The position numbers were made by a program, and so were the translations under genes. Positions 3,420-61,205 of a DNA stretch of 64,000 nucleotides are shown here, one piece after another (the first letter of the stretch is position 1; every line of letters begins with the position of its first letter). The DNA lies in NCBI RefSeq assembly GCF_030684315.1, contig NC_081387.1:5684497-5748496 (forward strand), in the 5' to 3' direction. Under the pieces are notes generated by a model. That model saw only the letters and a program-made list of their open reading frames with translations. It was not told the origin of the DNA and searched no databases. The DNA is from Stegostoma tigrinum (taxonomy: Eukaryota).

Positions 3420-3625
3420 AAAGACCGAAAGAACTGCGGATGCTGTGAATCAGGAACAAAAACAAAGTTGCTGGAAAAGCCCAGCGAGTCTGGCAGCATA
3501 TGTGAAGAAAAAAACAGGGTTAATGTTTTGGGTCTGGTGACCCTTCCTCAGAACTGATGGTGGTTGGGAAAACGTCAGTTTATATGTATATATTTGTCCT
3601 ACTTATAAACTGATGTTTTCCCTGC
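3420..3625 (-). mobile_element. Penelope-like element terminal fragment with decayed hammerhead motif
   Basis: Matches the PLE end at 49501-49660; minus strand CTGAGGAAGGGTCACCAGACCCAAAAC (GAAA changed to AAAA). Confidence 0.7.
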
Positions 3626-9922: not shown

Positions 9923-10072
9923 AGACAGTAGGAACTGCAGATGCTGGAGAATCTGAAGTTTCCGAAATTTCTGATTTCTGAAGAAGGGTCTAGGCCTGAA
10001 ATGTCAGTTTTCCTGCTCCTCTGATGCTGCTTGACCTGCTGTCTTCACCCAGCTCTACACCTTTTTATCTCT
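9923..10072 (+). mobile_element. PLE-derived mini-element with hammerhead motif
   Basis: GGAACTGCAGATGCTGGAGAATC joined to an inverted PLE end containing CTGAAGAAGGGTCTAGGCCTGAAATGTC (9978-10005). Confidence 0.75.
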
Positions 10073-10960: not shown

Positions 10961-12061
10961 ACTGGGAAGTGGATTGGTCCATAAACCACAATCCCTTTTA
11001 CTCACTTGCTGTCACATGTTATGTTTAAAAGTTTAGTCTGAATGTGTCAGGAAGCTTTGTGCAGTCAAGAAGGAGAGATCACATCCAGAGTGATTACACA
11101 GTTTGGGGAATGAGGTGCTTTTTGTTAACCATTTTTGGCTTACACTGGGGGTGGGGGTTGGTGGTGGTGTGTGGTGTTATAACATATTCAGGCATTGCGA
11201 TTTGGCTATAATGTGATTGATGAACAGGGGAATGCTGTTTGTAAAGCATTGTGTTGGCTGTAATGCAATTCCATCAACCATGTATCGACATCACAGGCTT
11301 TGTCAAAGGAAAATTTCTTTCTTTTGATCATTGCAGACGGTGTAAATGTTCACACTAAGTCATAATGAGTTCATGTGAAAAATGTGATTGGATTGTATGC
11401 CATAAACCTCAAATATATCATCGAGAGAACAACTGCCTTATTAGAAAAATATGTGGAGTCTTACATTAAAGAGTTATGCTGAACACACTAACTGCATCAG
11501 CATTATTTAAATGCTAAATTAACAGTATAAGTAAAAAATGAAATATAGTTTAAAATAATGAGTGCTGTTGAAGTATGCACCTTTGTGTGTAGTATTTTTG
11601 CCTAGATTTTGTTACATTTGTAAGAACTATTGAACTTGTTTGTGTAAATCATTTATATCAAATGTTGTCTGTTACGAAATGTTCTTTTCCAGCACGATTT
11701 TGAATACAATGTTACTCAGGTTTAAATGCATTTTAATCCTGCAATTAACTTCAATGCCAATGGGCTACATAGGAAAGGAAGGTCAGATTCCTTTGCTTCA
11801 CCTATTTGAAAATCTATCCAGAAGTCTGTGCCGAAGGAATGTCAGGTCAGATCTGCATTTAAATCGATGGCAATTTTTAGTAAAATTCCCATGTGTCAAT
11901 TTTGGGGAAGTTTCATGGAGGGTTGCTGGCTGTGAGCTCTATCTTGCACAATTTTGCATTGTTCATCTCTTTTGAATCATGCTCGCACTGTCATGCATTC
12001 GCCAGAGGCAGTACTGACCACTGCTGGCATTTCCAGTGACAGAACTCTATCTAAAGCCCAG

Positions 12062-12192
12062 AGATGATGGGAACTGCAGATGCTGGAGAATCCAAGATAA
12101 CAAAGTGTGAGGCTGGATGAACACAGCAGGCCAAGCAGCATCTTAGGAGCACAAAAGCTGATGTTTCGGGCCTAGACCCTTCATCAGAGAGG
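12062..12192 (-). mobile_element. 131-bp PLE terminal insertion with hammerhead motif and 8-bp TSD
   Basis: AAGCCCAG duplicated at 12054-12061 and 12193-12200; minus strand CTGATGA-A-GGGTCTAGGCCC-GAAA-CATC (12187-12160). Confidence 0.85.
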
Positions 12193-12839: not shown

Positions 12840-15800
12840 CAGGATCAGAGGCCCAGAACAAAAGAATGACATTACGGGTAAACAGTAAGTTCTTTGGTTG
12901 GTGATAGTCAAATTAATAGCTATCTCTTTTAGATTACTTTCAGACAGAAGGTCAATAGGAGGAAATATTTACAGGTTAGAAATTAAAAGACCAGTACAAA
13001 ATTTGAATAATCAAATTAAGAACTAAGGAATTAAAATAGAAATGCTGGGCCAGACAACATGTTGTAACTGCACGATGTGGGAGCTGGTGGACTCCAATGT
13101 GGTTCAAGATATTGATTGCTTCAGGAACTCTGGCTGAGAGTAGGTGGGGGAAAGAGTTACCTGGATGTTGTGTTTCAGGAGACAGTCACACTCCTTAGAT
13201 TAAATTGCACTAATTTGGTCAGTGGTCAGGGACAGGAGGCAGGTAGAGGCATCCAAAAGGTACTGCTGAAGAGCTTCACCCCTTGAGCTTATCTAAAAGA
13301 TTTGAGATTGTTGTTCCTTTTGTGGATGTGGGCTGTAGCAAACTAACCATAGCTCCCTGGTACAGGGAGCCATTCAAGAAGGGGAGGAAAACAGAAATGT
13401 ATTCATAATTGGAGACAGTATAATCAAGAGAATAAATACTGATGTTTGTGGACAGCATCAACAGTTCTGGAGGCTGTGTTAACTGCTGCGTACTCAGTTT
13501 TGGGATATCTCAACTGGGCTGTCAGGAAACTTGGAGTGGGCGGGGAAAGATCCAGTTGTCATGGTCCATGTGGGTACCAATGATAAAATAGAAAGAGGAA
13601 AGTGCTTCAGTTGAGGGAATATGAACAGCTGGGGGCTAAATTAAAAGGCAGAATCAAAAAGGTGATAATCTGGATTACTGTCTGAACTACAAGCAAATTG
13701 TCACAGGCTAAATAAGATTACAGGTAAGTGCTGCGGCTCAAAGATTGTTGTGGGACAAACAGCTTTGAATTCATGGGTCATTGGCATCAGAACTGGTGAA
13801 GGAGGGAGCTGTTCTGATAGGGTGGACTGCACTGAATCGTGCTGGGACAAGAGTCCTGGCAAATCACATGAACTAGAGCTATGGTTTTCAATTAAATAGT
13901 GGAGGTGTGGGTTCAGTTGTATGGAAAATTATGGGAAAATTTAAAGAGGGTGATGGCCCAGTAGAGGCTATTAACATTTCTGGAACAAATAATAGGAGAG
14001 AGAGAGTATGGGAAGAGTCAGGAATCTAACTTCAGGTGCAGCAGGTAAGGGGGTAACTAAAAGAACAGGGGCAGTCAACAAAGAGCTGAGGTACTGTACT
14101 TAAATGCACACAGTACACAAAACAAGGTCAATGAACCAGCAGATTGAAATTGGCAGGTGTAATGTGGGTATCACAGAAGCATGGCTGAAAGGTGATCAGG
14201 GCTGGGAACTAAACAACCAAAGATACATGTCCTATCAAAAAGACAGGCAGATGGGCAGAGGGAGTGAGATTGCCTTGTTTGTAAGAAATTAAATCGATAG
14301 CAAGAAGTGATACACAGTCGGAAGGTATGGAATCTGTCTGGGTAGAGTTGATGAACTGCAAAGGAAAAAAGGAAAAGGAAAAACGGAAAAACTCCTGATG
14401 GGATAACAAAGTGTGGAGCTGAAGGAACACAGCAGGCCAGGCAGCATCAAAGGAACAGGAAAGCTGATGTTTTGGGTTGGGACCCTTCTTCAGAAAATCC
14501 TGATGGAAGTTATTTTTGGGCTTCCTAGCAGCAGTGGAGAAGGAAAGAAATCAGGAAATAGAAAAGGCACATAAGAAAGGCCCTACTACAATAATGATGA
14601 GTGATGTCAACACAGACAGACTGGGAAAATCAGATTGGTAATTGATCTCAAGAAAAGGAATTCATAGAATGTCTGAGATTTTTTTTGGAGTTGCTTGTGA
14701 ACAGCCCACTGGGGAACAGGCAATTCTAGATTTAGTGACGTGTTGTTAGACAGATATGATTAGGGAGCTGAAGGCGAAGGAAACCCTGGGGGACTACAGC
14801 CATAATATGATAGAGTTCACCTTGTTGTTTGAGAGAAGCTGGAATCAGTTGTAAAAGTATCACAAATGAGTAAAGACATGAGGGAGGAGCTGTTCAGAGC
14901 TGACTGGAAGTAGAATCTGGCAGGAAAGATGGTGGAGCAGCAATGGCAGGAGTTTCTGTGGGTAATGTAGGAGGCACAGCAGAAGTTCATCCAAAGGATG
15001 AAGAAACATACTAGGGGGACGCTGACAAGGGAAGTGAAGGACAGCATAAAAGCAAAAGATAAAGTATATGATGTGGTGAAGGTGGGTGGGAAGCTAGAGG
15101 ATTGGGAAGCCTTTAAAATCGGCAGAGGATAACTGAAAATGCGATAAATGGGAGAAGATGATATATGAGAGTAAGCTAGCCAAAAATATAAAAGAAGATT
15201 GCACGAGCTTTTTTTATATATTCAAAAGGTAAGACATAAGCAAGAGTGGACTTTGGACTGCTGGAAAATGAGGCTGCAGAAGTAGTAATGGTGAACAAAG
15301 AAATGATGGAGGAACCGTATAGGTATCTTACATCAGTTTTCACAGCGGAAGACACCAGCAGCATTCCAGAACTTTAAAAGAGTCAGGGGGTGGAGGTGAG
15401 GATAGTGGCAATCACGAAGGAGAAGGCGTGGGGGGAGGGTGAAAGGTCTGAAGGTGGATAAATCACCCAGACCAGATGGACTACAACCCAGAGTTCTGAA
15501 GAAGTTAGCTGAGGAAATTGTAGAGGAATCACTGGAGTCAGAGAGGATCCCAGAGGACCGTAAAATTATTAATGTAACACCCCTGTTTAAGAAGGGAAGG
15601 AGGCAGAAGACTGGAAACTGTAGGCTGGTCAGCTTGACATTGGTCGTTAGTAAGATTTTAGAGTCTATTATTGAGAATGAGTACCTGGAAGTACTTAGTA
15701 AAATAGGGCACGGTTAGCAAGACTTTATCAAAGGGAGGTCATGCCTGACAAATCTGTTAAAATTCTTTGAGGAGGTAACAATTGAATTAAACAACACTGA

Positions 15801-17223: not shown

Positions 17224-17315
17224 ATGAAGAAGGGTCTAGGCCCGAAACGTCGACTCTCCTACTCCTCTGATGTTGCCTGACCTGCTGGTTTCCTGCAGCT
17301 CCGCACTGTATCGAT
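17224..17315 (+). mobile_element. PLE terminal fragment with hammerhead motif
   Basis: ATGAAGAAGGGTCTAGGCCCGAAACGTC followed by a PLE tail. Confidence 0.7.
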
Positions 17316-19823: not shown

Positions 19824-22090
19824 GAATGTGGAGGTGCCGGTGTTGAACTGGTGTGGACAAGGTCAAAAATCACACAACACCAGGTTATAGTCCAACAGGT
19901 TTAATTGAAGACACAAACTTTCAGAATCACACTCCTTCTTCAGGTGTCAGTGAAAGTGGTGCCATCAGACACAGAATTTATTAACAAAAAATCAAAGGTC
20001 ATGGAACTGATGTGAAAGTGTTGAACAAACATAAAATGGCTGTTAAATCTTTAATCAGTTAGAAGCGATTAATATGCAAATTCCAGAATTTCTTTCAAGT
20101 CACTGCCCCTCTGGAGGTTGTTGCTCCGGGCTTGACATGAATGCTCAAGCCATCAGCGAATGTGTAAATGCCAAATTCTTCTGCTGCTCTCACGAGGTAG
20201 CTCAAAACATCACCCAAGCACAATGTGATGCCATCTATGCTCTCAAGATCATTTGCAACATTGTCATCAAACCAGCAGACAAGGAGGAGTCATCGTCATA
20301 CAGAATGGAATGGCCTACTGCAAGGAAGCATATAGACAACTGAACAACCAAGAACACGACAGACGACTACCTGCCGATCCAACCAAAGAACTCAACAGAC
20401 TGATCAAGACTTTTGATCCAGTCCTTCAGAGTATCTTACGCGCTCTCATCCCATGTACTTCTTGCTTAGGGGACTTCTACTGCCTTCTGAGGATACACAA
20501 AGCCAACGCACTTGGAAGTCCTATCATATCAGGCAAGAACCTCTCTGGCTATGTTGAGGGAACCCCCAGGTTTTGTTGCAACACCACAGATTTCTGACAC
20601 AAACTCAGCAACCACTAGCCAATTGAACGAGGAACATTCTTTGACACAATGGACATTTCAGTACTCTACACCAGCATACCCCAAAACAATGGCATCGCTG
20701 CAACAGCCTCAGTATTCAGTATCAACAATTATCAGTTTCTCGACACCATCCTCAACTTATCTGCTTCATACTTGACCACAATGTCTTCACGTTCGACAGT
20801 CAGTTCTTCATTCAGACACACAAAACAGCCATGAAATCCAGATTTGCACCTCAATATGCCAATATTTTTATGCACAAGTTTGAACAAGACTTTGTTGCTG
20901 CCCAGGATCTCTGACCAATGCTATACACCAGGCACATTGACAACATTTTCTTCCTTTGGACTAACGGCAAGGAATGACTGAAACAATTACTTAATGATAT
21001 CAACAAGTTTCATCCCACCATCAGACTTACCATGGACTACTCTTTAGAATCAGGAATGTTCTTAGACATACGCATCTCTATCAATGACGAACACCACAGT
21101 ACCTCATTCTATCCCAAAACTATGGATAACCTCGTGATGCTGCACCTGTCTAGCTTCTACCCTAACATATTAGAAAAGCCATCCCCTGCAGACAAGCCCT
21201 ACGCATACACAGAATCTGTTCAGATGAAGAGGAGGAATGAAACAGAGACCTGAAGGATGCCATCACATGAATGAGATATGATGCCCAACTCATTGATCAC
21301 TAGTTCTGACAGTGAAGAACCATAATGACCACCTCAGAAAACAGACATCAGATATGACTGATTGGGTACCCCTCATTGTCCAGTACTTCCCGGGAGTGGA
21401 GAAACTACACCATGTTCTTCACAGCCTTCAACACATCATCGATGACGATGAGCACCTCACCAAGATCTTTTCTACAGCTGCAGTTCTTGCCTTCAAACAA
21501 TTGCTAAGCCTTAAACAGACCATTGTTCACAGCAAACAACCCAGCCTTCAGGACAACATCGACCACAACACCATACAACCCAGTCATGGCAACATCTGCA
21601 AGACATGTCAGATTTTTGACATGGATACTACTATCACACGGGGGAACACCGCCCACCATGTGCATGGCAGATACCCATATGACTCAATGTTGTCTACTTC
21701 GTGTTGCAGGCAAGGATGCCATGAGGCACATGGCGTATCAGTGAAACCATGCAGATGCTACTAAAATAGATGAATGGACACTGTGTAACAATTGTCTGAC
21801 AGAAATGTTCCCTCCCACTGGGGAAACACTTCCGGGGTCAAGGAGATGTGGCATCGGATCTTCAGGTAAATGTCCTCCAAGGCAGACTTCAGGATACTTA
21901 ACAATGCTGCGTCACCGAGTAGAAGCTGATAGCCCATGAGGATGGCTTCAATTGGGATACTGGGTTCATGTCATACCACAGGTGACCCCACCACGCTATA
22001 GATTCTCACACATACACACACTCTCTCACACAAATGCACTCACACAGACCCTCTCCCTCTCACACACACACTCTCTCTCTCTCTCCCACA

Positions 22091-22133
<43 letters not shown>

Positions 22134-22659
22134 TCTCTCCCCCACCGCCGCCACACACATATAAATTTATGGGGTGAATTTTCACTTGCAGATTTGTAAT
22201 TATAGATACATTCTATTTTGTTCAAAAAACACACAATTTGTACACAACGTGGCATTTTAGAAATTCCTACTTTGGAAATAAAATCAATCTGACTCCAAAT
22301 TAATAAACAGCCAGATTCTAAACAAGGCCTCACACCCAAAATGCATTGTCTGACCTGGGGTGTCACCTCTGGCGTACTGAAGGAAGTGATAAAACCTTTA
22401 GTTATCTCAGGGCAGTGACTTTAAAGAAGTTCTAGAATTTTCTTATCAATCCTTTCTAACTGATTACTGATTTAGTAGCCATCTTAGGTTTACTCAACTC
22501 ATTTGCATTAGTTCTATGACGCTTTGAGCTTCTGCTTATAAATTCTGTATCTGATGGCACGTCTCTCACTAACAACTGAAGAAGGAGCGAGACTGAAGGC
22601 TTGTGTCTTCAAATAAACCTGTTGGACCTGTTGGTGTTGTGCGATTTTTGACCTTGTCC
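19824..22659 (+). mobile_element. Degraded Penelope-like element with about 250-bp inverted terminal repeats
   Basis: RT relics IVIKPADK, MDISVLYTSIP, PQYANIFM, HIDNIF; GIY-YIG region relics; 19855-20110 is an inverted copy of 22408-22659; internal CA/CT microsatellite at 22010-22160. Confidence 0.85.
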
Positions 22660-35449: not shown

Positions 35450-35586
35450 GTGATAATGGGAACTGCAGATGCTGGAGAATTCCAAGATAATAAAATGTGA
35501 GGCTGGATGAACACAGCAGGCCAAGCAGCATCTCAGGAGCACTTTGCTTGGCCTGCTGTGTTCATCCAGCCTCACATTTTATTATC
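35450..35586. mobile_element. 137-bp PLE-derived foldback insertion with a perfect 42-bp inverted repeat and 11-13-bp TSD
   Basis: 35486-35527 is the exact reverse complement of 35545-35586; (TC)AGCAATTACAA is duplicated at 35437-35449 and 35585-35597. Confidence 0.9.
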
Positions 35587-35635: not shown

Positions 35636-38600
35636 TATAACACGGTGTGAAGCTGAATGAACAAAGCAGGCCAAGCAGCATCAGAGGAGCAAGACAGTTT
35701 GATGTTTCGGGTTGGGATCCTTCTTCAGAAATGGGGGAGGGGAAGGGGATTCTAAGATAAATAGGGAGACGGGGGAGGCGGATAGAAGATGGATAGAGGA
35801 GAAGATAGGTTGAGAGGAGACAGACAGGTCAAAGAGGCGGGGTTAGAGCCTGTGAAGGTGAATGTAGGTGGGGAGTTAGAGAGGGATAGGTCAGTCCAGG
35901 GAGGATGGACACGTCAAGGGGTTGGGATGAGATTAATGGGTAGGAGATAGGGGTGGGGCTTGAAGTAGGAGGAATGGTTAGGGAGTTGGGGACTAGCTGG
36001 GCTGGTTTGGGGATGTGATTGGGAGAGGGCGGATTTTGAAGCTTGTGAAGTCCACATTGATACCCTTGGGCTACAGGGTTCCCGAGCAAAATATGAGATG
36101 CTGTACCTGCATCTTTCAGGTGGTGTCATTGTGGCAATGCAGGAGGCCCAGGATGGACATGTTGTCCGAGGAGTCGGGGGTGGGGGGGGGGGGGGTGGGG
36201 CGCGGTGGTTGGGGGGAGTTGAAATGGTTCACGACTGGGAGGTGTAGTTGTTTGTTGCAAACTGAGTGTAGGTGTTCCACAAAGCCGTCCCCAAGTCTCG
36301 GTTTGGTTTCCCCGATGTAGAAGAGGCCACAACGGGACCAGCAGATACAGTATATTGCATTTGCAGATGTGCAGGTGAACATCTGTTTGATGTGAAAAGT
36401 CTTCTTAGGGCCTGGGATGGGGGTGAGAGGGGCAGTATTGGGGCAGGTGTAGCATTTGGTTCGGTTGCAGGGAAAAGTGCCGGGGGAGTGGCGCTGGAGG
36501 GAAGTGTGGAGCAGCAAGGGAATCACGGAGAGAGTGGTCCCTCCTGAAAGCAGACAAGGGTGGGGAGGGAAAAATGACTTTGGTGGGGCCAGATTGCAGA
36601 TGGCGGAAATATCGGAGGATGATGCGTGGGATTAGGAGATTGGTGGGGTGGTATGTGAGGACGAGGGGGATTTTATTTTGGTTATTATTGCAGATAGTGG
36701 GTGTGAGGGATGAGCTGCGGGAAATGCAGGAGACACGGTCGAGGGCATTTTTTGATCACTGTGGAGGGGAAGGTGTGGTTCTTGAAAAAAGAGGACATCT
36801 GGGATGTTCAAGAGTGGAATGCCTCACCTCGGGAGCAGATGTGGTGGAGGTGAAGGAATTCGGAATAGGGGATGGCCTTTTTACATGAGGGTGGGTGAGA
36901 GGAGGAATATTCTAGGTAGTTGTGGGAGTTGGTAGGCTTAAAATGGATATCAGTTTCCAGGTGGATGCCAAAGATGGAGACAGAGTGGTCCAGGAAGGAG
37001 AGAGAGGTGTCAGTGATGGTTCAGGTAAACTTAAGGTTGGGGTGGAAGGTGTCAGTGAAGTGGTTGAACTGTTCGAGCTCCTATTTGGAACATGAGGCGG
37101 CGCCGAAACAGTCATCAGTGTGACGGAGGAAGAGATGGGGGAGAGGGCCAGTGTAGCTTTGGAAGAGGGATTGTTCCATGTACCCTACAAAGAGGCAGGC
37201 ATAGCTTGGGCCCATGTGAGTACCCATGGCCTCCCCCTTTGTCTGTAGGAAGTGGGAGGAATTGACAGAGAAGTTATTGAGGGTGAGGACAAATTCGGCT
37301 AAGCCGATGAGGGTGTTGGTGGAGAGGGACTGGTTGGGCCTGCGGGACAGGAAGAAACAGAGGGCCTTTAGGCCCTCTGTATGGGGAATGCAGGTTTATA
37401 GGGACCGGACGTCCATAGTAAAAATGAGGTGTTGGGGACCGGGAAATTGGAAGTTCTGGAGGAGGTGGAGGTGTGGGTGGTGTCATGGACGTATGTAGGG
37501 AATTCCTGGACCAAGAGGGAGACAATGGAATCCAGATAGGTGGAGATAAGTTCGATGGGGCAGGAGCAGGTGGAGACATTGGGTCAACGAGGGCAGTCAG
37601 GTTTGTGGATTTTGGGAAGGAGATAGAAGCAGGCAATGCGAGGTTGGGGAACGGTGAGGTTGGAGGCTTTGGGTGGGAGGTCACCTGAGGTGATGAGGTT
37701 GTGGATGATTTGGGAGATGATGGTTTGGTGCTCGGGGGTAGGATCATGATCCAGGGGGCAGTAGGAGGAGGTGTCAGAGAGTTGGCGCCTGGCCTTAGCA
37801 ATGTAGAGGTCAGTGCGCCATACTACGACTGCACCTCCCTTGTCCGCGGGTTTTATGGTGAGGTTGGGATTGGAGCTGGGTGCTGCATGTTCTGTGGGGA
37901 ATAGTTTGAGTCGGTGAGGGGGTGGAGAGGTTGAGGCGATCGATGACAATTAGAGAAGAAGAGGTTGAGGGAGGGTAGGAGGCCTTGGGGTGGAGCCCAG
38001 GATTGATGTCTTCAATGGGTGGAGCAAAGTCAGCGAGGGGAGGAGCAATATTGGCAATGGGCAGAACAATGTTGGTGATGGGCAGAGTGACATTGTTGGA
38101 GGGTGGAGCGACGTTATGGCCTCCTCTACATTGGAGAAACCAAATGGAGGCTTGGGGACTGCTTTGTGGAACACCTACACTCAGTTCACAACAAACAACT
38201 GCACCTCCCAGTTGCGAACTATTTCAACTCCCCCGTCCACTCCTCAGACGACATGTCCATCCTGCATTGCCATGTGGACGCCACTCGAAAGGTGCAGGAA
38301 CAGCATTTCATATTTCGCTTGGGAACTCTGCAACCCAAGGGTATCAATGTGGACTTCACAAGCTTCAAAATCTCCCCTCCCCTGATCACATCCTAAAACC
38401 AGCCCAGCTAGTCATCGCCTCCCTAACCATTCCTCCCACCTCAAGTCTCACCCCTATCTCCTACCCATTGACCTCATCCCACCTCCTTGAACTGTCTGTC
38501 CTCTCTGGGCTGACCTATGCCCATCCTAACTCCCCATCTACATTCACCTTCACTGGCTCTAACCCCGCCTCTTTGACCTGTCTGTCTCCGCTCACCCTCT

Positions 38601-38779
38601 CTTCTCCTCTATCCATCTTCTATCCACCTCCCCCTGTCTCCCTATTTATTTCAAAATCCCCTTCCCCTCCCGAAATGTCAAACTGTCCTGCTCCTCTGAT
38701 GCTGCTTCACCTGCTGTGTTCATCCAGCTTCACACCGTGTTATCTCAGATTCTCCAGCATCGGCAGTTTCTCCTATCTT
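35636..38779 (-). mobile_element. Penelope-like element, inverted two-arm structure, 14-bp TSD
   Basis: Minus arm has RT (IKPADKGGAVVVW, FYLLPKIHKP) and GIY-YIG (IYCICWSRCGLFYIGETK); the plus arm at about 38110-38779 repeats the GIY-YIG/3' end; GGATATATGTTTGT at 35622-35635 and 38780-38793. Confidence 0.92.
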
Positions 38780-40312
38780 GGATATATGTTTGTGTCATGT
38801 TAACATGTTGAAAAGAAATCATTGGCAAAGACAGTAAGAGAAAAGTGTAGAAAAAATTTAAACCATGAACCAACAATCAAATAGAAAACAAGAAAGTGCT
38901 TAAATTATAGACAGCATCGTGTTTTATCTTCCAGAAAACTATTCAGGTGACATACAAAGGCTAATGCAGAATTATAGAATAATTTATAAAATAAACCAGC
39001 AACACCAATTTTGGCTGCTTATCATGTTAATGTGGAGGGATGTGTTACTTACAAAACAACACCCATACTCACTCAATCTGGAGATATTCACTCAAGTGAG
39101 GGAAGAAAATAAGAATATGACATTATTGAACTGAGTCATAGCAGCAGGTGCTCCCCTGTCATGATGGTGCCAAAATCAGACAGGCCACGATGATTCTGTA
39201 ATGATTATTGCAAAGTCAGTGTGGTTAAAAAAAGTGGACCTGTACCAAGACAGGAGGACTGAATTGAACAAATGAGATATGCTTGATTTTTCACAAAGAG
39301 TGGCTTGTGTAAAGTTTGTGAACAGATAGCGCTAAAGAAATATTGGCTTTTGTAACATCAGTGCAAAATAGATTAGAAAATGGATAATGAAATGCTTATG
39401 GTATAAAGATATGCAATGTTCTGTATGCGTCAATGTTTCACTTAGAATTTTTAACTGAGGTGAGACTCTCCATGTGTCATTTGAATAAAGTGATCATAAA
39501 CCTGTATTCACTCTCCAGAAACAACACAGAGGAGACGGAGGAACACAACAGGTCAGGCAGCATCAGAGGAGTAGAAAAGTTGATGTTTCGGGTCAGGACC
39601 CTTCTTCTGAAATGAAGATAAAATACAACCAACCAAACTATGCATGTGGAACACTAACTTAAAGATTTAGAAATGCATGGTGAGATAAAATCCCATTAAT
39701 CCCAAAACTACTCTTTTACAGTCCTCATCATAAAGAGAAGCTCCTGCTCTATCACTTCTATAGAATTAAATTAACTTTGACTTCAACTCCCAGTCTGGAG
39801 AATCTGACAATCTCTTCCTGGAACCCTCATACGCCTGTGCTTAAGCTTTCTCAGCTTCAAGTAGTCTCTTCAGAGTCATAATCAAACAGTCTTGATCTTG
39901 AACTATTGCTAATTCCTTACACTAAGGGAACCTATTAACAAGTGTAAACTATCTTTGTACTTTGTCAGGAGCAACTAATTTTGACATCTACCTTAAGCCA
40001 AGGCTTCTGCAGAAACCTGCCACACCCCCAGCTAATTAAAAAGTTTATCTTTTTTCGTACTGTGGGTGTTTCCCCTAAGTTCAAAGAAACAAGTCTAGAA
40101 TTTTCAATCAGGAAACGTGAATACCTTATTTGCTCATAATCTCTCAATGTAAACAATAACCCATGGCACTTGGAAGTTATCTCTCTCAAACATTTAAAAT
40201 AAATTACTGTGGCTACAAAAATATTTTTGAGTTGATCTTTAAAATCCTTTAAACAAACAGAGTCCATAGCTCAAAATTAAAAAATCCAAACTTAAAAATA
40301 ATTTCCTATTCA

Positions 40313-42315: not shown

Positions 42316-42423
42316 CCCTCCAAGGCTTTTTCCAGATGATTATTCCAAATATTGAAGCCATTGCAGTGACTAATCCAATCACAATTACAAGATGGGAACG
42401 TTCCATACTGTTTTCTGGGATTT
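42316..42423 (-). CDS. MHC class I exon 5 (connecting peptide and transmembrane)
   Basis: TTTCAG|; EIPENSMERSHLVIVIGLVTAMASIFGIIIWKKPWR; the phase-1 donor position reads G|ATAAGA; read-through gives DKNKM* (stop 42301-42299). Confidence 0.8.
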
Positions 42424-42859
42424 CTGAAACATATTCAATAATATCAGAATGCTGTCTGTTCCTGGATCTATTCTCAGTTGAGCTTTAGCTGGGTACATGT
42501 TTAACTGATTCCCACCCCTTAGGAATTGATGGGATTGGTTGAAACACTAGTTTGACATGCCCAATTACACTCTCCATTGAAGTCATTAAAGATTCTGTTG
42601 ATGGAGCTGTAAAAATCTAGTGCTGCAATCCAGGACAAAAGAGAACTATCTTCAAGTTAGAGTGAGATAATTTAGGATTGAAATCAAGAAACACTTCCTC
42701 ATGAAAATTGGAGTGGAATTCTGGAACTCAATTCCCTATGAGCCCTGAGGTTCCATTGAATTTTTCTAGACTTGAGATCATGAGACTTTTGTATGGAAAG
42801 AGCAGGAAGTGGGTAAAGGTAGTGAGGTAAGTCAGACAAGACTTCACTGAATAAGAACA

Positions 42860-43078
42860 CAAGTTGTTGGAAAAGTGCAGCAGGCCTGGCAGCATCTGTG
42901 AAGAAAAAGTCAGAGATGTTGTTTCGGGTCTAGTGACCCTTCCTCAGAACTGGACTGGACCCGAAACATTAACTCTGATTTTTTTTCTTCATTGATGCTG
43001 TCAGACCTGCTGAGCTTTTCCAGCAACTTCTGTTTTTGTTTCTAATTTACAGCATCCACAGTTCTTTCGGTTTTTATT
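42860..43078. mobile_element. PLE-derived foldback element in MHC intron 4, with hammerhead motif
   Basis: Imperfect inverted arms of about 70 bp (AAGTTGTTGGAAAAG...TTTCGGGTCTAGT / ACTGGACCCGAAA...CTTTTCCAGCAACTT); minus CTGAGGAAGGGTCACTAGACCCGAAAC at 42947-42921. Confidence 0.8.
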
Positions 43079-43171
43079 TAGGACCTCACTTAATGGTGGA
43101 ATAGACTCGAGGAGCTGAAAAGCAAGCTCCTGTTTCTATATTAAATATATGTACACATACATTGATAATCT

Positions 43172-43173
<2 letters not shown>

Positions 43174-43207
<34 letters not shown>
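43174..43207. repeat. (CA)17 microsatellite next to the alpha3 donor
   Basis: Directly visible. Confidence 0.95.
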
Positions 43208-43208
<1 letters not shown>

Positions 43209-43221
43209 GCCAATTCCTTAC

Positions 43222-43500
43222 CCCACTGATACAGCTTGGCCTCTGTCATGCTGCTGTGTTCAATTTGACAGGAATATTGATCACCATCCCCAGCACTGAT
43301 TTCAATCTCTTTCTGGATCTGATGGGTCCCATCGTGGTTCGGTCGAATCCCTGAGGATTGTGTCTCAGACGTGACCTCTCCATTCCTTAGCCAGGTCACC
43401 TCGATGTCTACAGGATAAAATCCAGTGACCAGGCAGGAGAGAGTGAGCGGCTTGTCCTGATGATTGGGCTCACTCCTGGAGATGAACACTTCAGGCTGAA
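43222..43500 (-). CDS. MHC class I exon 4 (alpha3, C1-set Ig)
   Basis: LSCLVTGFYPVDIEVTWLRNG...PNHDGTHQ...YSCQIEHSS; CACAG|...|GTAAGG; 279 nt. Confidence 0.93.
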
Positions 43501-43608
43501 CTGTGATGGGAAAGGGTGAGAACACAAAAAATAGACACACATTGACTGGAATAGGAGAACTGTTTCTGAAATTAGATAAGAACATGGGATTAAGACTGAA
43601 ACTCATAC

Positions 43609-43884
43609 CTTTCCTTTCAAAATATTTCTTTCCTGCTTGGAAATGTACATTTAAGTCCTGAACAAAAACTTCTTCCAAATGTGTTTTCCAAAATTTGTCC
43701 CAGGTTTCATCGGCATTCCATTTCTCTTTCATTTTCACTGTATTATGATTGGTTGCAATCCATTTCATTCTGACTGGCTCGAAACTCAGATAGTCCCTTC
43801 CATCAAATCCAACTCACATCAATCTCTTAATAGAGCTATCATCAGAGATTTCAACAATAGTTATAAACTGAAAAATGTGAATTC
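43609..43884 (-). CDS. MHC class I exon 3 (alpha2) with an in-frame TGA
   Basis: CTGCAG|...|GTATGA, 276 nt: GIHIFQFITIVEISDDSSIKRLM*VGFDGRDYLSF...KWIA...KEKWN...HLEEVFVQDLNVHFQAGKKYFERK. Confidence 0.9.
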
Positions 43885-44186
43885 CTGCAGGTGTCCAAAC
43901 AAAGAAAAACAAACAAAAAGATTTTCTAATTGAACATTGCAAGTTGTTTGGTAAGAGGGCAAAGAGGTTGGGTTTCAGTTAGAAATGGGGAATTAGAGTC
44001 ACAGTCTCTGATCAGACGGGAGAGAGGACCTAGCATCAGATAGAAATGGGGGATTAGAGTTACAGTCACCTCAGGAGATTGACTGAGTGGAGTGACCCAA
44101 GGGTCAGTTCTGGGGTTTAAGGAGAGTGGAATGATTCTGGGTGAAAACAGATAATCAATGTGCATTCTCTATAGGTTTGATCTTAC

Positions 44187-44447
44187 CAGACGTCTGGTTT
44201 GTCATTGTCATCATTGCTTTCAGATTCTCTTTTGTCAGCTCTGAATTTGCGTTCACGAAATTTGAGACATGGTCCCAGAATTTAATGCTGAAATAGTCAA
44301 CCATGAACTGTTGCCTGGGGATGCAACGACGGATCACACTGTCATGGTAACCTACTTGGACTCCATTGACCATCGCTACAGATGTCACCTCAAGAAAATC
44401 TTTAATGCCCGATACTATTGTGTATATCATTGTGTGCGTCTTAGTGT
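44187..44447 (-). CDS. MHC class I exon 2 (alpha1)
   Basis: DTKTHTMIYTIVSG...VNGVQVGYHDS...FWD...NQTSG, 261 nt, donor G|GTAAGA; the acceptor reads TTTACTG| instead of TTTACAG|. Confidence 0.88.
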
Positions 44448-45350
44448 CAGTAAAGAGAGATAATAAAGGAGGTCACCAAACACTAAAATAAGCATCATCA
44501 TGATCAACCTGGACTCTACTGACTATAACAAGCACAGAAACCTCAGCAATATCACTATTGTCAAAGACTGCCATGAAACATACTGTAAAGGTATTAACTG
44601 CCTATATAAACCACAAAAATGGGACAGTCAATAACCATGTACACATATTATCACATGACCAAAGTGACCCTCCTAACCAGCAAACATCCGAAGTGAGAAA
44701 TTCAGGTTAACCTGAGAGTAGGTCTATGATTTATTAACATAACCAGATAAGATGGGGAGGGAGTGAATCCAGATTGAAATGAAGAGGAACAAGAATATTT
44801 AGGAGGATGAAGTATGAGACCATGGCAGACAGTGACTGTGTGAACAATCTCTCTTTCAAACACGGGAATAGACAATCCAGAGCAGGATCCTCACCGTCCT
44901 TCACTGAGCTTTTTAATCACCCCTTTATACATGGTCAATACGGGGTTGGTGACTGAGAAAATCCGACCTATTCAACCATGAGGGCATCACAAATGAGCCC
45001 GGGGTGGGTTAAACACGGAGCATCATTCTCCTCCCAGCAGCCTTTACAAGGTTTTACACCAGGAATGATGAAATGGGTTTACTTCTCCCAATTGATGTGA
45101 AATTTAAAATTGTCCATGTGGACCATTTCCCAAGCTTCTGTGAGCTTGGGGTTTCTACATCCTGCTGTCAGGAGACCTGGACACAAATCCCACCAGAGCC
45201 TCCCAGGCTGTGCTGCCTTCAGTGTGTAAAATACCAGGCTGGCTGTAAAACGGGCGGCTGGTGAACTGTCCCCCATTTCAAACTCTCAGCAAGAGATTCA
45301 CATTCACCCCAGAAAGAGGGAAAGAATGGAAAACAGAATTCTGTACTTAC

Positions 45351-45402
45351 CAGGTGAGACCCAGGAAAAACACAGGGAGATGGAGAAAAGGATTAGCAGC
45401 AT
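45351..45402 (-). CDS. MHC class I exon 1 (signal peptide MLLILFSISLCFSWVSP)
   Basis: Hydrophobic 17 codons plus 1 nt, followed by donor G|GTAAGT. Confidence 0.85.
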
Positions 45403-45949
45403 TCTGGAAACCACTCACCCTATTCTAACCAGACACTGGGAATAAAACACTTTGAGGGGGAACAAATTGTTGTTTGTAAACTGGAAAAAAACAAAAACAT
45501 ATCCCTGGAGACTTGAGAGATTACAAGAGAGTTTACTGGATTTTACTAAAACTCGGATGAACTGTTTGTACATAAAACTGGAAGGAAACAAAGAAGTTTA
45601 TCAAAGAATTATCAAGACTTTGCTTCACTGTTAAAACTTCAACTTTGATCATCGTGACAGCAGAACCAGAGAGTGAATGATTGGTTAATTTTGGTCAAAT
45701 GACCAATTAAAGGGTAAACAAGATAACAAAGTGTGAAGCTGGATGAACACAGCAGGCCAAGCAGCAAAAGTAAACGGTTGGCTGTCACCAGTTACTAGGA
45801 AGAAGAACTCAGGGATTTATTATCAGGTGGAGAAATAATAGCGACTCACCTTTGTGTGGCGCACTTGTCTGAGGATAGTCTAAGTACTTCCTGAGGCTTT
45901 ATGAAACGGAGTATGGTAATGTGCTATATAAGGAAGTATTGGACAAGTC

Positions 45950-46162
45950 AAAAACCAAAAGAACTGCGGATGCTGGAAATCAGAAACAGCAACAGAAATT
46001 CTGAGAAAATCGCTGCATCTGTGGAGAACTAATGTTTTGGGTCCATTAACAGTGACTTGCGCATTTTGAAGAAGAATGACTGGATCTGAAATGTTAACTC
46101 TAATTTCTATCCACTGATGCTACCCGACTTGCTGAGTTTTTCCAACAATTTCTGATTTTGCT
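45950..46162. mobile_element. Old PLE-derived foldback element upstream of the MHC gene (plus a PLE scrap of about 45 bp at 45721-45766)
   Basis: GAACTGCGGATGCTGGAAATCAGAAAC and inverted GAGTTTTTCCAACAATTTCTG. Confidence 0.65.
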
Positions 46163-49500: not shown

Positions 49501-51100
49501 AAAACTGCAAGAACTGTGGATGCTGTAAATCAGGAACAAAGGTGCTGGAAAAGCTCAGCGGCTCTGGCAGCATCTGTGATGGAAAAGACAGAGTTAACGT
49601 TTCGGGTCCAGTGACCCTTCCTCAGAACTGATGGTGGCTGGGAAAACATCAGTTTATTTGCAGAAAATAGGGAGGTGGGTAGGGCAGGGAGTAAGTGATA
49701 AGATAGAGCCCAAAGAGAGAGAAAGACAGTTGGATAAAGGAGTTGCCAAGGAATTAGGCTGGGCGTGTGAATAGTTGTTAATGGAGACTGTTAGTGACCA
49801 ACAACAGGGGGTGTGTAATGGCAGGCTGAGGTTACAAGGCCTGGTATGTGGGGTGGGGGCGCTGGGACATGGTAGAGTTTAGGCCCTAAAATTATTGAAG
49901 TCAATATTGAGTCCGGAGAGCTGTGGGGTCCCCAAGCGGAAAATGAGATGTTGTTCCTCCAGCTTGCGTTGGGCTTGGCTGGAGCACTTCAGCAAGCTAA
50001 AGACAGAGATGTTGGCCAGGGAGCAGGGTGGTGCATTAAAGTGGCAGGCAACAGGTAGTTCAGGGTCTTCTTTGTGAGCAGAACATAGATGTTCTGCGAA
50101 GCGGTCACCAACTCTATGCTTTGTTTCCCCAATGTAGGTGAGACCACATTGTGAGCAGTGAATGCAGTAGACTGGTTTCTGGGAAGCGCAGGTGAAGTGT
50201 TGCATCACCTGGAAGGTATGTTTGGGCCCTCAGACACTGGGGAGGGAGGAGATAAATGGGCAGGTGTTTCACCTTTGCTGGTTACAGGGGAAGGTGCGGT
50301 AGGGCTGTGGGGATGTGTTGGGCATGAAGGAGGTGTGGACCAGGGAGTCCCGGAGGGAACAGTCCCAGTGGAAGGTGGACAAGGGAGGGGAGGGGAATAT
50401 GTGTCTGGTGGTTGCATCTCATTGGAGATGGCAGAAATGGCATCTGATGATCTTCTGGGTGTGGATGCTGATGGGATGGTAGGTGAGGATAAGGGGAACC
50501 CTTTCACTGTTGTGGGACAGAAGATAAGGGGTGAGGGCAGAAGTGCAGGAGATGGGTCGGACCTGATTGAGGGCCCTGTCGAAAATGGAGCTGGAGAATC
50601 GTCGGCTGAGGAAGAAGGTGGACATTTTGGAGACTCTCTTGTAAAAGTTGGCCGCATCTGAACATATACGACAGAGACAGAGGAACTGAAAGGATGGGGT
50701 GGAGTCTTTACAGGAAGTGGGGTGTGAAGATGTATAATCCAGACAGCTGTGGGAGTCAGAGCGTTTATAGTGGATTTTGGTAGCCAATTTAACCCCGGAA
50801 ATGAAAATAGAAATGTTGAGGAAGGGGAGGAGCCAGAGATAGGCCAGGTAAACGTGATGGAAGGTTGGAAATTGGTGGCGAAATTGATGAAGTTTTTCAA
50901 TTCCAGACGAGAAAAGGAAGCAGCACTGATGATATCATCGATGTATCGGAGAAAGAATTGTGGGTGGGGCCGGAATAAGACTGGAACAAGGAATGTTCCA
51001 TGTACCTCATGAAGAGACAGGCGTAATTAGGGCCCATGCGGCTACCCGTGGGCACCCCTCTTACCTGAAGAAAATGAGAGGAGTTGAAAGACCTGGGTTT
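49501..51100 (-). mobile_element. Penelope-like element (RT, GIY-YIG and 3' end), 5' truncated
   Basis: MGPNYACLFM, FLRYIDD, VYCIHCSQCGLTYIGETKHRVGDRFAEH. Confidence 0.9.
49592..49629 (-). ncRNA. Minimal type I hammerhead ribozyme motif (intact)
   Basis: AGTT-CTGAGGA-A-GGGTC-ACTG-GACCC-GAA-ACGT-T-AACT: core boxes, 5-bp stem II, palindromic ACGT stem III, GUU triplet, 4-bp stem I. Confidence 0.75.
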
Positions 51101-54976: not shown

Positions 54977-56918
54977 TGGGAAGAGGTTAGTAGTTAGGAA
55001 ATGGGGGTGCGGCTTGAGGTGGGAGGAGGGGATAGGTGAGAGGAAGAACAGGTTAGGGAGGTGGGGATGAGCTGGGTTGGTTTTGGGATGTAGTAGGGGG
55101 AGGGGAGATTTTGAAGCTTGTGAAACCCACATTGATACCATTGGGCTGCAGGGTTCCCAAGGGGAATATGAGTTGCTGTTCCTGCAACCTTCGGGTGGTA
55201 TCATTGTGGCACTGCAGAAGGCCCAGCATGGACATGTCGTCTAAGGAATGGGAGGGGGAGTTGAAATGGTTCGCGACTGGGAGGTGCAGTTGTTTATTGG
55301 GAGTGGCCATGGGTACCCGCATGGGCCCAAGCTATGCCTATCTCTTTGTAGAACAATCCCTCTTCTTTACTTACACTGTCCTAAACCCCACCTTTTCCTC
55401 CGTTGAATTGATGACTGTATTGGCGCCGCCTCCTGCTCCCACGAGGAGGTCTAACAGTTCATCCCCTTCACCAACACCTTCCACCCCAAACTTGAGTTCA
55501 CCTGGACCATCTCTAATACCTCTCTCACCTTCCTGGACCTCTCAGTCTCCATTTCGGGCAACCACCTAGAAACCGATATCCATTTCAAGCCCACCGACTC
55601 CCACAGCTACCTAGAATACACCTCCTCCCACCCACCTTCCAGCAAAAATGCCATCCCCTATTCCCAATTCCTTCACCTCTGCCACAGCTGCTCCCAGGAT
55701 GAGGCATTACACTCCCGTACATCTCAGATGTCCTAGTTTTTCAAGGACTGCTACGTCCCCTCCGCAGTGACTGAGAACGCCCTCGACTGTGTCGCCTGCA
55801 TTTCCCGCAACTCATCCCTCACACCCTGTCCCTGCAATCACAACAAAAAAAGAATCCCCCTCGTCCTCACGTACCACCCAACCAACCTCTGGCTCCAAAG
55901 CATCATCCTCCAACACTTCTGCCATCTACAATCCGACCTCACCACCAAAGACAATTTTCCCTCCCCACCCTTGTTTGCTTTTTGGAGGGACCACTCTCTC
56001 CGTAACTACCTTGTCTGCTCCGCACTCCCCTCCAACCCCACCACATCTGGCACTTTTCCCTGCAACCGCAGGAAGTGCTACATCTGCCCCCACACCTCCT
56101 CCTTCACCCCCATCCCAGGCCCCAAGACAACTTTCCATATTAAGCAGAGGTTCAAGTGCACATCTGCCAATGTGGGATACTGCATCCGCTGTACCCGTTG
56201 TGGCCTCCTCTACATCAGGGAAACCAAGCGGAGGCTTGGGGACCGCTTTGCAGAACACCTATGCTCGGTTCGCAATAAACAACTGCACCTCCCAGTCACA
56301 AACCATTTCAACGCCCCTCCCATTCCTCAGACGACATGTCCATCATAGGCCTCCTGGAGTGCCACAACAATGCCATCTGAAGGTTGCAGGAACAGCAACT
56401 CATATTCAGCTTGGGACCCCTGCAGCTCAATGGCAAAAATATGGATGTCACAAGCTTCAAAATCTCCCCTCCCCCTATCGCATCCCAAAACCAGCCCAGC
56501 TCATCCCCGCCTCCCTAACCTGTTCTTCCTTTCACCTCTCCCTAACTCCCACCTCAAGCTGGACCCCCATTACCTTCCTACTAACCTCATCCCTCCCCCT
56601 TGACCTGTCCGTCCTCCCTGGACTAACCTATCTCCTCCCTACCTCCCCATCTACACTTACCTTTACTGGCTCCATTCCCTGCCTCTTTGACTTGTCTGTC
56701 TCCTTTCCACTTATCTTCTCCTCTATCCATCTTCTATCCGCTTCTTCCCTCTCCCTATTTATTTCAGAACCCTCTTCCCCTCCCCCATTTCTGATGAAGG
56801 GTCTAGGCCTGAAACGTCAGCCTTCCTGCTCCTATGATGCTGCTTGGCTTGCAGTGTTCATCCAGCTCTACACCTTGTTATCTCAGATTCTCCAGCATTT
56901 GTAGTTCCTATTATCTCT
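54977..56918 (+). mobile_element. Penelope-like element with an inverted 3' copy (- arm 54977-55300; + arm 55300-56918)
   Basis: GVAMGTRMGPSYA, R*IDD, GYCIRCTRCGLLYIRETKRRLGDRFAEH; the left arm is a reverse copy of the GIY-YIG end. Confidence 0.9.
56788..56821 (+). ncRNA. Minimal hammerhead ribozyme motif in the PLE 3' region
   Basis: CTGATGA-A-GGGTCTAGGCCT-GAA-ACGT-C (56791-56818), GUC triplet; weak stem I. Confidence 0.6.
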
Positions 56919-58239
56919 GCAAATAAGGTAATATTTATTATTCATCCTTGACTATTCAAATGAGATGGTTTTCTGGACCATTAAGAATGTAGATCAGGAG
57001 TCATATTTTCATTAGTTGGGCGGGGATGGCCATTTCTTTCCCTAAAGGATAAGTTTTTACAACAGTTAATGACAGTTGCTGTGGTCACCATTACTGAGAT
57101 TAGCTTTCTAATCTCTACTTACTAATGGAGTTTAAATTTCACCAGCTGCTTTGTATAGGTTTGAACTTCTGTCCCTGAATGTTAACCTAAACCTTAGGAT
57201 TACATATCTCAGGACATTACCACATTACCACAACCTGAGCCGGGGACAGGTTTGTGATCAAACGATTAAGAATCAGGTGAGATGGTTGTGATCCTGCTGG
57301 AATGGGCAGTTGTTGGGGAATTCTAACATGTCACTGGGTCTCAGTGTTTATTCATAGATAAGATGGGGGGGAGATCAGTTTTCTCCTGTATTACAGAACG
57401 GACAATATGAATTGAGGATGCAGTGTGAAAGGAGAATGTGTATTTCTAGAGTAAATGCCTCAGAGTTAAGGAAGTGGAGATGATTCAGGACAGATCATAG
57501 GGCTGAAGCTTCCCATTTTTAAGCTAAGTATAGATTTCAGGGAGTTTGGTGATGAATTTTCCAGCATGATCGATGGTGACTTGTGTCACATGATTCTATG
57601 CTCTGCTGTTCATTAATGTTTGATGCCGTTTTCTCCAATGCTCAATACCAGAGATAATTACCACTACACAGAGGCCTTGAGCTACTTTAGGTGCTCTGTC
57701 ATCTTTAACACCCAGTAGCCACACCACTTCAAATGCTACAAGCCTGAGATTGTCCTCTCACTCTTCTGATCCAATGTTATCCAAGAGGATGTGGCCCAGC
57801 AAGGTGAAGCTACATTGACAGGAACTTGGAGTTGCTGGGGGACCAGGTGGTGGAGAGGAGGGCAGTGCTGTATCATGCTGACTGGTAAAGGAGGGCATAC
57901 CATCAAACCAAGCGAGCCTGAATTAATATAATCCCCCAAGTCAGTGCTACACTGTGCAATTATATAAAGGCACAGCAGTGCTAGAAGAAGGTGAATGAGA
58001 TTTTTCACTCTGCAAGTGCAAGTGCTCCCACCTTCTCTCTACTTCCTCATTCTCATTCTCACTCTTCCACTGCAGAGACATTGATGAGAGATTGGGTTTT
58101 CAATGTTCGCCTTTGAGGGAATGTCTTATTTAAGGGGAGGTCTATTTCTAAGTTAAAAATTGTTTCTGTTCCATTGGACTCAATTGTATTATTTTCAAAT
58201 TGGCCTGGGATCATTTCAAATCGTACAAAATAATTGGCT

Positions 58240-58620: not shown

Positions 58621-59254
58621 AGTAACATTCAAACATTATAACAGTTTACAAAGTAAAAAAACTGCTCATTAAGACAAATTACCTGAAAGGTTTGGATCTG
58701 AGTGAATGAATTTGACATTGTTCAGCAATATCTACCACAAATGTTCTGTAAAGTCGATTTGCTGCTGAATTAAAATGTCCCTTGTTTCCCTCTCCCTCTC
58801 CGCTGCTCTTCTCTCTGATTTCTTAGGGGTGAGAAAGGTATTTTCTCTCTCTTAATGTCCAAATCCATTGACCTCCAGCTGCTCTTGAGCCACTTTTACA
58901 GCTGTAGTTGTGCTTTCCTCAGGTGCTCCATGACGCTTGGCTCCAGTCACATCCATATTGGGATCCTCCATTTCATCAATTTCTGGCACCATCTAGTCTG
59001 TGGACTGAAGGGTCAGTGCTTCCTGCAGGGGAACATTGTATAATGTGCACCAGACCTACACTATCCTTGAGACGTCAACCAGAAAGAATTGTAGAGTGAT
59101 GCCTAACCTGTTCACGTTCTGGGAATGTGATTTTAACAATTCGATCACAGGGGGATGGGTCTGGGTGGGATGTTCCAAGGGGTGGTGTGGACTTGTTGGA
59201 CCAAAGGGCCTGTTTCCACACCGTAGGGAGTCTAATCTAATCTTATGTAAGGTT

Positions 59255-61205
59255 TAAGAAACAAGGAACGGAAAAGGCTCTAGGGGTATATAAGTCATCC
59301 AGGAAGAACCTGAAGAAAGAGCTTAGGAGAGCAATAAGGGGGCAGGAAAAAGCCTTGGCAGATATGATCAAGGAAAACTCCAAGGCTTTTTACACGTACG
59401 TGAGGAATAAGAGAATGTCCAGAGAAAGGGTAGGGCCGATCAAAGATTGTAAAGGGAATTTGTGCACGGAGCCTAAAGAGGTAGGAGAGGTCATTAATGA
59501 ATACTTTTCTTCAGTATTCACAACAGATAAGGACCTAGTTGTAGAGGAGGACAGTGTGAAACAGACTCGTAGGCTAGAGGAGATCACTGTTAGTAAGGAA
59601 GATGTGCTAGGAATTTTGAAGAAGTTGAAGATAGATAAGCACCCCGGGCCTAATGGGATTTATCCAAGGATTCTATGGGAAGCGAGGGAAGAGATCGCAG
59701 GGCCTTTGGCTATGATCTTTTTGTCCTCATTGTCCACGGGTATAATGCTGGAAGATTGGAGAGAGGCAAATGTCATTCCCTTGTTCAAAAAAGGGAATAG
59801 GGATAACCCCGGAAATTACAGGCCAGTTAGTCTTACATCAGTGGTGGGCAAATTATTAGAAAGGGCTCTGAAAGATAGGATTTATGATCACTTGGAAAGC
59901 ACAGTTTGATTTGTGACAGTCAGCAAGGATTTGTGAGGAGTAGATCATGCCTCACAAACCTTATTGAATTCTTTGAAGAGGTGACCCAACATGTGGATGA
60001 AGGAACAGCAGTGGATGTGGTATACATGGACTTAAGTAAGGCTATTGATAAGGTCCCCCATGGTAGGCTGATGCAGAAGGTAAGGAGGCATGGGATAGAG
60101 GAAAACGTGGCAGATTGGATTCAGAATTGGCTGACCCTTAGAGGACAAAGGGTGGTAGTGGATGGAAAATATTCAATATGGTGCTCAGTTACGAGTGGTA
60201 TACCATAAGGATCTGCCCTGGGTCTTCTTCTATTTGTGGCTTTTGTAAATGATTTGGATGAAGGAGTGGAAGGGTGGATTAGCAAGTTTGTGGACGGTGC
60301 GAAGGTGGGTTGCATTGTGGATTGGGCAGAGGCTGTTCTAGGTTACAAAGGGACATTGATTGAATGCAGAGCTGGGTTGAGAAGTAGCAGATGGAGTTTA
60401 ACCCTGAAAAGTCTGGGGTGATTCATTTTGGAAGGACAAACTTGAAAGCAGAATACAGAGTTAATGGAAAGATTCTTGGCAGTGTGGAGGAGCAGAGGGA
60501 TCTTGGGGTTCGTGTTCACAGTTCCCTGAAAGCTGCCACCCAGATGGATAGAGTTGTTAAGAAGGCGTATGGTGTGTTAGTTTTCATTAATAGATGGATC
60601 GAGTTCAAGAGCCATGAAGTTATGCTCCAGCTCTCCAAAACCCTGGTTCGGCCACACCTAAAGTATTGTGTCCAGTTCTAGTTGCCTCATTGCAGGAAAG
60701 GTGTGGAAGCATTGGAAAAGGTGCAGAGGAGATTTACCAGGATGTTGCCTGGAATGGAGGGAAGGTCTTACAAGGAAAGGTTGAGAGAGCTAGGGCTTTT
60801 CTCTTTAGAACAATGAAGGATGAGAGGTAACTTGATAGAGGCATGCAAAATGATCAGAGGTCCTTTGGACGGTACAGTCAGAGATTTTTTCCTAGGGTGG
60901 AGGTAGCTATTACATGGGGGCATAGTTTTAAAGTGAGTGGAGGTAGATACAGGGGAGACGTCAGAGGTAGGTTCTTTACTCAGAGAGTGGTAGGGGCGTG
61001 GTATGCATTGCCAGAGAGGGTAGTGGAGTTGGCCTCATTAGGGGCATTTAACCGGCTATTTGATAGGCATGTGGATGACAGTATAACGTAGCAGTGGAGG
61101 TTAGATTGACCTTGGGTTTCGGGTAAAAGTTTGGCACAACATCGTGGGCTAAAGGGCCTGTAATGTTCTGTACTGCTCTAAGTTCTTTCTATGTTCTACA
61201 TTCTA
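59255..61205 (+). mobile_element. Relatively well preserved CR1 LINE ORF2 (RT) and 3' end
   Basis: NVIPLFKKG...NYRPVSLTSVVGK, QQGFVRSRSCLTNLIEFFE, SKFVDG; few frameshifts; TTCTATG tail. Confidence 0.92.

Follow-up and report, generated by a model that had tools for sequence, protein, structure and literature searches.

The window, that is, the whole 64-kb stretch of Stegostoma tigrinum DNA analyzed here, harbored 13 hammerhead-like motifs, decayed copies of Penelope-like elements (PLEs), and portions of host genes (Table 1). The host genes were represented by (i) an MHC class I-like gene at 42317-45450 (-), in which the alpha-2, alpha-3, and transmembrane exons were readable, the alpha-1 exon and some splice sites looked irregular, and which may be non-classical or a pseudogene; and (ii) a single exon at 6356-7402 (-) with about 11 C2H2 zinc fingers. 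Another reverse transcriptase (RT) fragment, which gave a weak RVT_1 match and which we take to be CR1/L2-like, was located at 59241-59909 (+).

Table 1. Coordinates of hammerhead motifs and PLE-derived features, by position in the window and then elsewhere in the genome
Feature	Position	Strand	Remarks
Family 1 motif	3525..3555	-	G12 lost, stem III broken
Family 2 motif	9978..10005	+	Two wobbles; heads short copy
Short end-module copy, hammerhead to tail	12061..12192	-	8-bp target-site duplication; contains 12160-12187 motif
Family 2 (older) motif	14465..14493	-	G12 lost, stem III broken
Family 2 motif	17224..17251	+	C3 lost; copy begins inside core
Family 3 motif	19915..19945	-	Core intact, two wobbles, 5-bp stem I
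Decayed family 3 PLE RT and endonuclease-like remnant	20095..21764	+	29-34% aa identity to L063 ORF
Family 3 motif	22576..22603	+	A15.1 lost, stem II damaged
Family 2 PLE copy, long and decayed, with 35701 motif at its end	35646..38011	-	81% nt identity over 2040 nt
Family 2 (older) motif	35701..35728	-	Stem III broken
Family 2 (older) motif	39582..39608	-	U4 lost, stem III broken
Family 1 fold-back insertion	42849..43082		Intron of MHC class I-like gene (- strand)
Family 1 motif	46067..46098	+	C3 lost, stem II damaged
Family 1 motif	49592..49629	-	Intact core, 5-bp stem II, Watson-Crick stem III, 4-bp stem I
Remnant of PLE RT/endonuclease, decayed, upstream of 49592 motif	49837..51091	-	tblastn with L063, 49-62% aa identity
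5'-truncated family 2 PLE copy	55299..56919	+	80% nt identity over 1639 nt
Family 2 motif	56791..56818	+	Core intact, G-U at 10.1-11.1, 2-bp stem I
Remnants mapped with L063 protein	55299-56500 (+), 38011-36002 (-), 51091-49837 (-), 20095-21163 (+)		
Fourth-family motif	L014:2480-2525	-	Locus elsewhere in genome
Fourth-family motif	L272:7320-7365	+	Locus elsewhere in genome

A hammerhead-like core was present, with unchanged coordinates, at all 13 sites listed by the initial annotation, which had reported about a dozen minimal hammerheads. A core-pattern scan allowing at most one mismatch gave 11 matches in the window, compared with a chance mean of 0.1 and a maximum of 1 in 20 first-order Markov simulations. 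An Rfam search of the window (Hammerhead_1 and relatives) returned no hammerhead match at the gathering threshold. Positions are numbered after PMC4209133.

The motifs displayed a stem II with G10.1-C11.1, an unpaired base before stem II, and palindromic positions 15.2-16.2 in a loopless stem III (CG in families 1, 2, and 4, and GC in family 3). Three families with differing stems were confirmed in the window, in agreement with the at least three proposed previously, and a fourth, with a longer stem II plus loop, was found outside the window only; stem I comprised 4 bp in family 1, 2 bp in family 2, up to 5 bp in family 3, and 3-4 bp in family 4. An audit of cores and stems divided the 13 motifs as follows: (i) 49592-49629 (-) was the sole fully intact one, with a predicted cut between 49596 and 49595, just as the initial annotation had it; (ii) three (56791, 9978, and 19915) kept the core with G-U wobbles at 10.1-11.1 and/or in stem III; (iii) two (12160 and 35701) kept the core letters with stem III broken; and (iv) seven had a core fault (17224, 42921, 3525, 14465, 39582, 22576, and 46067). 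G-U wobbles at 10.1-11.1 weaken hammerhead cleavage. All core letters of CUGANGA / GAAA / UH were therefore kept in six copies; among the seven copies that had been singled out as better preserved, five kept these letters and two had core faults (C3 in 17224 and U16.1 in 42921). Since the motifs were mostly broken, they are likely inert where they sit.

The parent elements were sought with a window ORF remnant as query, which had at least 150 close relatives in the genome, and 14 of these with long open frames were examined. In all 14, a single ORF carried both RT and GIY-YIG motifs; 13 had a hammerhead on the same strand, either directly at the ORF 3' end or no more than about 340 nt away from it. 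Pfam matches of the ORF were weak and below curated cut-offs (RVT_1, E 2e-6 to 8e-4; GIY-YIG, E 3e-3), a Pfam search of the window's PLE remnants gave no match, and neither did a PDB sequence search with the element ORF. One copy, L063, was almost full length with one frameshift, and it contained between RT and endonuclease the CX4CXXC linker CNRRKCYTC, which was also found in the window remnants. A CX2-5CxxC linker is a mark of Neptune and Nematis PLEs (PMC8557442), and by this linker the endonuclease-bearing parent elements would be of Neptune/Nematis type.

With the L063 protein, four remnants were mapped in the window, all of them lying upstream of a motif, and the motifs lacking such a remnant headed short end-module copies. 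The origin in PLE terminal repeats put forward previously was borne out by these four motifs together with the 13 of 14 long copies. The 55299-56919 copy held the RT end, linker, GIY-YIG, and end module with tail, and had an inverted arm at 54977-55302; the 35646-38011 copy had its inverted arm at about 38091-38784; and the family 3 motif 19915-19945 (-) is probably the inverted arm of the 20095-22659 copy. At 35449-35586, a very young fold-back copy (98-100% to L063) without hammerhead had integrated some 60 nt away from where an older PLE copy ends. Elsewhere, the same PLE insertion together with its flanks was found twice, 53 kb apart (L083 and L084; C1:19038814 and C1:19091651), and this doubling is either a segmental duplication or an assembly repeat.

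The exact core pattern, which makes no demand for paired stems, had 130,048 matches in the 3.2-Gb genome, compared with 0 for the reversed control, in line with the very large numbers predicted earlier from the window. A family-1 pattern gave 3,186 matches, and downstream anchors numbered 212,389 for family 2 and 9,801 for family 1. Loose matches numbered 10 in the window versus 9.4 per 64 kb elsewhere (47 in 320 kb, from 32 arbitrary 10-kb stretches), which ruled out that the window was unusually dense in motifs.

Sequence decay was followed in 82 family-2 copies at other loci, in which substitutions relative to one young copy amounted to 18.3% per CpG site versus 4.7% elsewhere. Decay was thus concentrated at CpG sites, which include G12 and stem III; this is as neutral decay would give, and it upholds the earlier remark that damage often falls at CpG. 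The core was fixed across four families while the stems varied. In an alignment of 21 copies, paired cells made up 74.8% versus 58.2% in shuffles (0/500), and eight of ten base pairs were altered on both sides; the set is illustrative only, as the copies were picked by hand (13 of the 21 for having paired stems), came from four independent families, and included five family-3 rows one column out of alignment. Folding of single motifs gave z-scores of -0.4 to -1.5, which were not significant. Family 2 was predicted to form one long hairpin with C3 at its 5' edge, in which the core is paired away (inactive fold, 84% of the ensemble), and the long hairpin predicted for family 1 was less regular.

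Copy ends, counted from the predicted cut, were mapped in the first 70 + strand family-2 and the first 50 family-1 downstream-anchor matches of contig C1. The 3' ends were bimodal in these copies, falling at about +55-75 and +88-113 and centring near +65 and +100. An adjacent inverted arm accompanied 33 of the 70 family-2 and 23 of the 50 family-1 copies, and the tail was present on exactly one arm in 38/38 inverted pairs (p 7e-12); target-site duplications were seen in nine and seven copies, respectively. These ends suggest a model in which the parent RNA would be reverse-transcribed from two internal starts, located some 65 and 100 nt past the hammerhead cut, with priming on both target strands: one start would likely be used on each nicked strand, so that a single arm of each inverted pair would receive the tail.

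The commonest class was made up of short copies, about 95-135 nt long and sharing one 5' edge, and most short copies began at the hammerhead 5' edge, not at the cut. In family 1, 27/50 copies had 5' ends from 6 nt before to 2 nt after C3, 4/50 ended further upstream beyond the hammerhead edge, and 2/50 ended within 2 nt of the cut; the corresponding counts in family 2 were 19/70, 22/70, and 4/70. Of the 31 family-1 copies reaching the hammerhead 5' edge, 27 stopped there, and 29 of 267 family-2 arms ended at -29. Among 11 long copies with the ORF start, seven ran upstream through the cut, six extended well beyond the hammerhead 5' edge, and none started at the cut, which ruled out full-length copies starting there. 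Because the short copies include the complete hammerhead and end where it begins on the 5' side, and because the long copies mostly run through the cut with none starting there, most templates were likely uncut. The hammerhead 5' edge, the sequence of which presumably resembles an initiator consensus, is probably the transcript start, and this assignment is weakened by the six long copies that pass well beyond it. Selection on active parent elements would keep the hammerhead, which in these parents probably needs dimerization or help from the element's protein in order to cut, and the small class of copies starting at the cut base may derive from cut RNAs.

The pile-up of 5' ends at the hammerhead edge could also arise in another way: the cDNA would fold back once the hairpin has been copied and release the RT, and the edge would then not be a transcript start. 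The single long hairpin predicted for family 2 with C3 at the 5' edge, the frequent adjacent inverted arms, and the long copies running beyond the edge all speak for such fold-back, but the wall is sharper in family 1 despite its less regular hairpin, and PLE promoters are described as internal and located in the pLTR (PMC2377424, PMC8557442); fold-back is a fair possibility, at less than even odds. That the short copies are a SINE-like or MITE-like family in its own right, spread from separate master genes, rather than PLE by-products, is considered unlikely. Their abundance, common 5' edge, and occasional target-site duplications would suit such a family, but they are collinear with the terminal part of copies that carry the ORF (95-96% at 12160), the two 3' ends are common to short and ORF-bearing copies, and the 5' ends grade continuously into the ORF. 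The preferred reading, to which we assign a probability of roughly 0.85, is that the motifs are minimal type I hammerheads belonging to the 3' end modules of three PLE families and preserved in truncated relics, with insertion by the inferred two-start mechanism.

The predicted cut base was also compared with other positions in family-2 copies at other loci, the junction counts resting on small samples from this one family. Arms with both upstream bases non-native numbered 3,622 at the cut, 595 at +2, and 991 at +20; true junctions made up 29/30, 10/15, and 11/15 of the respective samples (that at +20 judged by eye, the script having accepted all 15), giving estimates of about 3,500, 400, and 730 true junctions. 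With denominators alike at 0 and +2, about 2-3% of arms had their first base precisely at the predicted cut, which is roughly 3-9 times as many as at the +2 base. This excess may be a footprint of in vivo cleavage, a possibility put somewhat below even odds.

Slightly better than even is the chance that the excess is instead a by-product of the AGCT palindrome at the cut, of AGC microhomologies, and of the following U-run, without ribozyme cleavage. Twelve of the 30 sampled junctions were perfect fold-backs on the palindrome (8 of the 12 representing four sites seen from both strands), about seven more used 3-4 nt of microhomology as judged by eye, and family 2 has a stem I of just 2 bp. However, 727 perfect fold-backs were centred on the 4-nt palindrome starting at the cut, as against 47 and 24 on control palindromes 5 nt upstream and 26 nt downstream, respectively, and after removal of fold-backs and microhomology joins by eye, 10 of the 30 cut junctions remained, still about three times the +2 count; three of these 10 joined the ORF start head-to-tail to the cut base. 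The sample of 267 family-2 arms, which overlaps the other junction samples and is not independent of them, can be read both ways: six arms started at 0 with none at -1 or -2, but a similar spike of seven arms stood at +7. In the RNA data described for the green anole element, reads neither began nor ended at the cut (PMC11167929), as the palindrome account would have it.

If cleavage does underlie the excess, the copies of this very young and huge PLE family would form a fossil record of RNA processing, in which thousands start at the cut through germ-line cleavage, despite a stem I of 2 bp, most others start at a promoter just before the hammerhead, and every inverted pair uses one of each of the two RT starts; we offer this tentatively, with the odds against it as a whole. 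Were it true, the pairing of RT starts would be as expected from a protein dimer priming both target strands, and the role of PLE hammerheads could be tested from assemblies alone. PLE insertion has been called unclear by Craig et al. (PMC8557442), and with more than 100,000 near-identical cores, junction statistics can address both in vivo cutting and PLE insertion. Such junction evidence was not found in a search of literature titles and abstracts, and a cartilaginous-fish count was found only in the 2026 retrozyme preprint, with subscription papers and some supplements outside this search.

Tandem arrays of internally deleted PLE units, with periods of about 166-363 nt, were observed at L094-L096 (C1:49657000-49659000) and other loci, and none was found among the 13 window motifs. 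One example consisted of 3.9 units of 362 bp with 99% matches; the array units covered the ORF start and the hammerhead together with the two RT start points, and an Rfam search of the L095 array gave no hammerhead match up to E 5. The internal deletions were considered as splice junctions and rejected as such, since by eye they showed CT-rich microhomologies without an AG acceptor. The arrays are retrozyme-like and look as would be expected if RT had worked on a circular template.

The initial annotation had placed two sense-oriented motifs in introns, where they might affect pre-mRNA. For 42921-42947 (-), the placement stood: the 42849-43082 fold-back lies between the alpha-3 exon (43500-43222) and the transmembrane exon (from 42423) of the class I-like gene, with the motif in sense orientation. 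The 12160 copy lies 4.4 kb upstream of the zinc-finger exon on the same strand, and no exon of the zinc-finger gene was seen upstream of it. The proposed effect on pre-mRNA found no support in either copy, as 42921-42947 lacked U16.1, stem III, and the greater part of stem I, so that its core cannot form, and stem III of 12160 was broken. At 49575-49600 (-) and at the family 1 loci L001-L010, sequence resembling a branch point, a pyrimidine tract, and an AG acceptor followed the cut, and then an ATG; the branch-like A of family 1 adjoins the cut. This splice-like arrangement was not conserved in older family 2 copies.

That some sense intronic copies cut or otherwise alter host pre-mRNA is accordingly held to be very improbable. 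The class I intron does contain a sense copy, the abundance of exact cores makes for nearby same-strand pairs and possible in-trans dimers, and the family 1 end modules resemble splicing signals by eye. Nevertheless, besides the damage to both named copies, the dominant family has a 2-bp stem I and a core sequestered in the predicted fold, monomers did not cleave and dimers were slow in the in vitro assays of PMC4209133, and the anole motif needs the element's protein (PMC11167929).

The motifs were compared with the min-HHRs described by Cervera and de la Peña in 2014 from the pLTRs of metazoan PLEs (PMC4209133), with which they shared (i) a type I core with an extra base between A9 and stem II and G10.1-C11.1, (ii) a palindromic loopless stem III and several families per genome, and (iii) mostly single motifs from truncated copies and close inverted pairs. 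They are new copies of this known class, expected in a PLE-rich vertebrate genome. A typical min-HHR has a stem I of 4-5 bp, while that of the dominant family here had 2 bp, like the D. virilis variant; the numbers given there (about 4,000 in coelacanth and 9,000 in Xenopus) are far lower than those found here, although the descriptors differ, and the searchable supplement files of that paper contained no shark terms. A lone minimal hammerhead gave no cleavage in vitro in the assays reported there (PMC4209133), and dimer cleavage is reviewed in PMC6765202.

The tandem arrays were compared with non-LTR retrozymes (PMC7229834; bioRxiv 10.64898/2026.07.22.740005), which they resembled in being tandem short PLE-derived units with a hammerhead, at loci other than the window. 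The preprint gives mean units of 363 bp in one chondrichthyan (bioRxiv 10.64898/2026.07.22.740005), and the arrays would fit non-LTR retrozymes as already reported there; in axolotl, whose genome is far larger, canonical copies number up to 120,000 (PMC7229834).

The parent elements shared with the Neptune/Nematis-type PLEs of Craig et al. 2021 (PMC8557442) an RT followed by a C-terminal GIY-YIG, the CX2-5CxxC linker, partial tandems, an adjacent inverted 5'-truncated copy, and a 30-40 bp tail; the one-end tail, described there as occurring often, was strict here (38/38 pairs). In the green anole, the ORF of the Poseidon element PAc begins inside the hammerhead and RNA-seq yielded no cut-site ends (Frangieh et al. 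2024, PMC11167929); the elements here had the first long-frame ATG about 135 nt past the cut and 2-3% of genomic arms starting at the cut. The two systems would be alike in two internal RT starts that define the tail and in uncut RNA as the likely main template.
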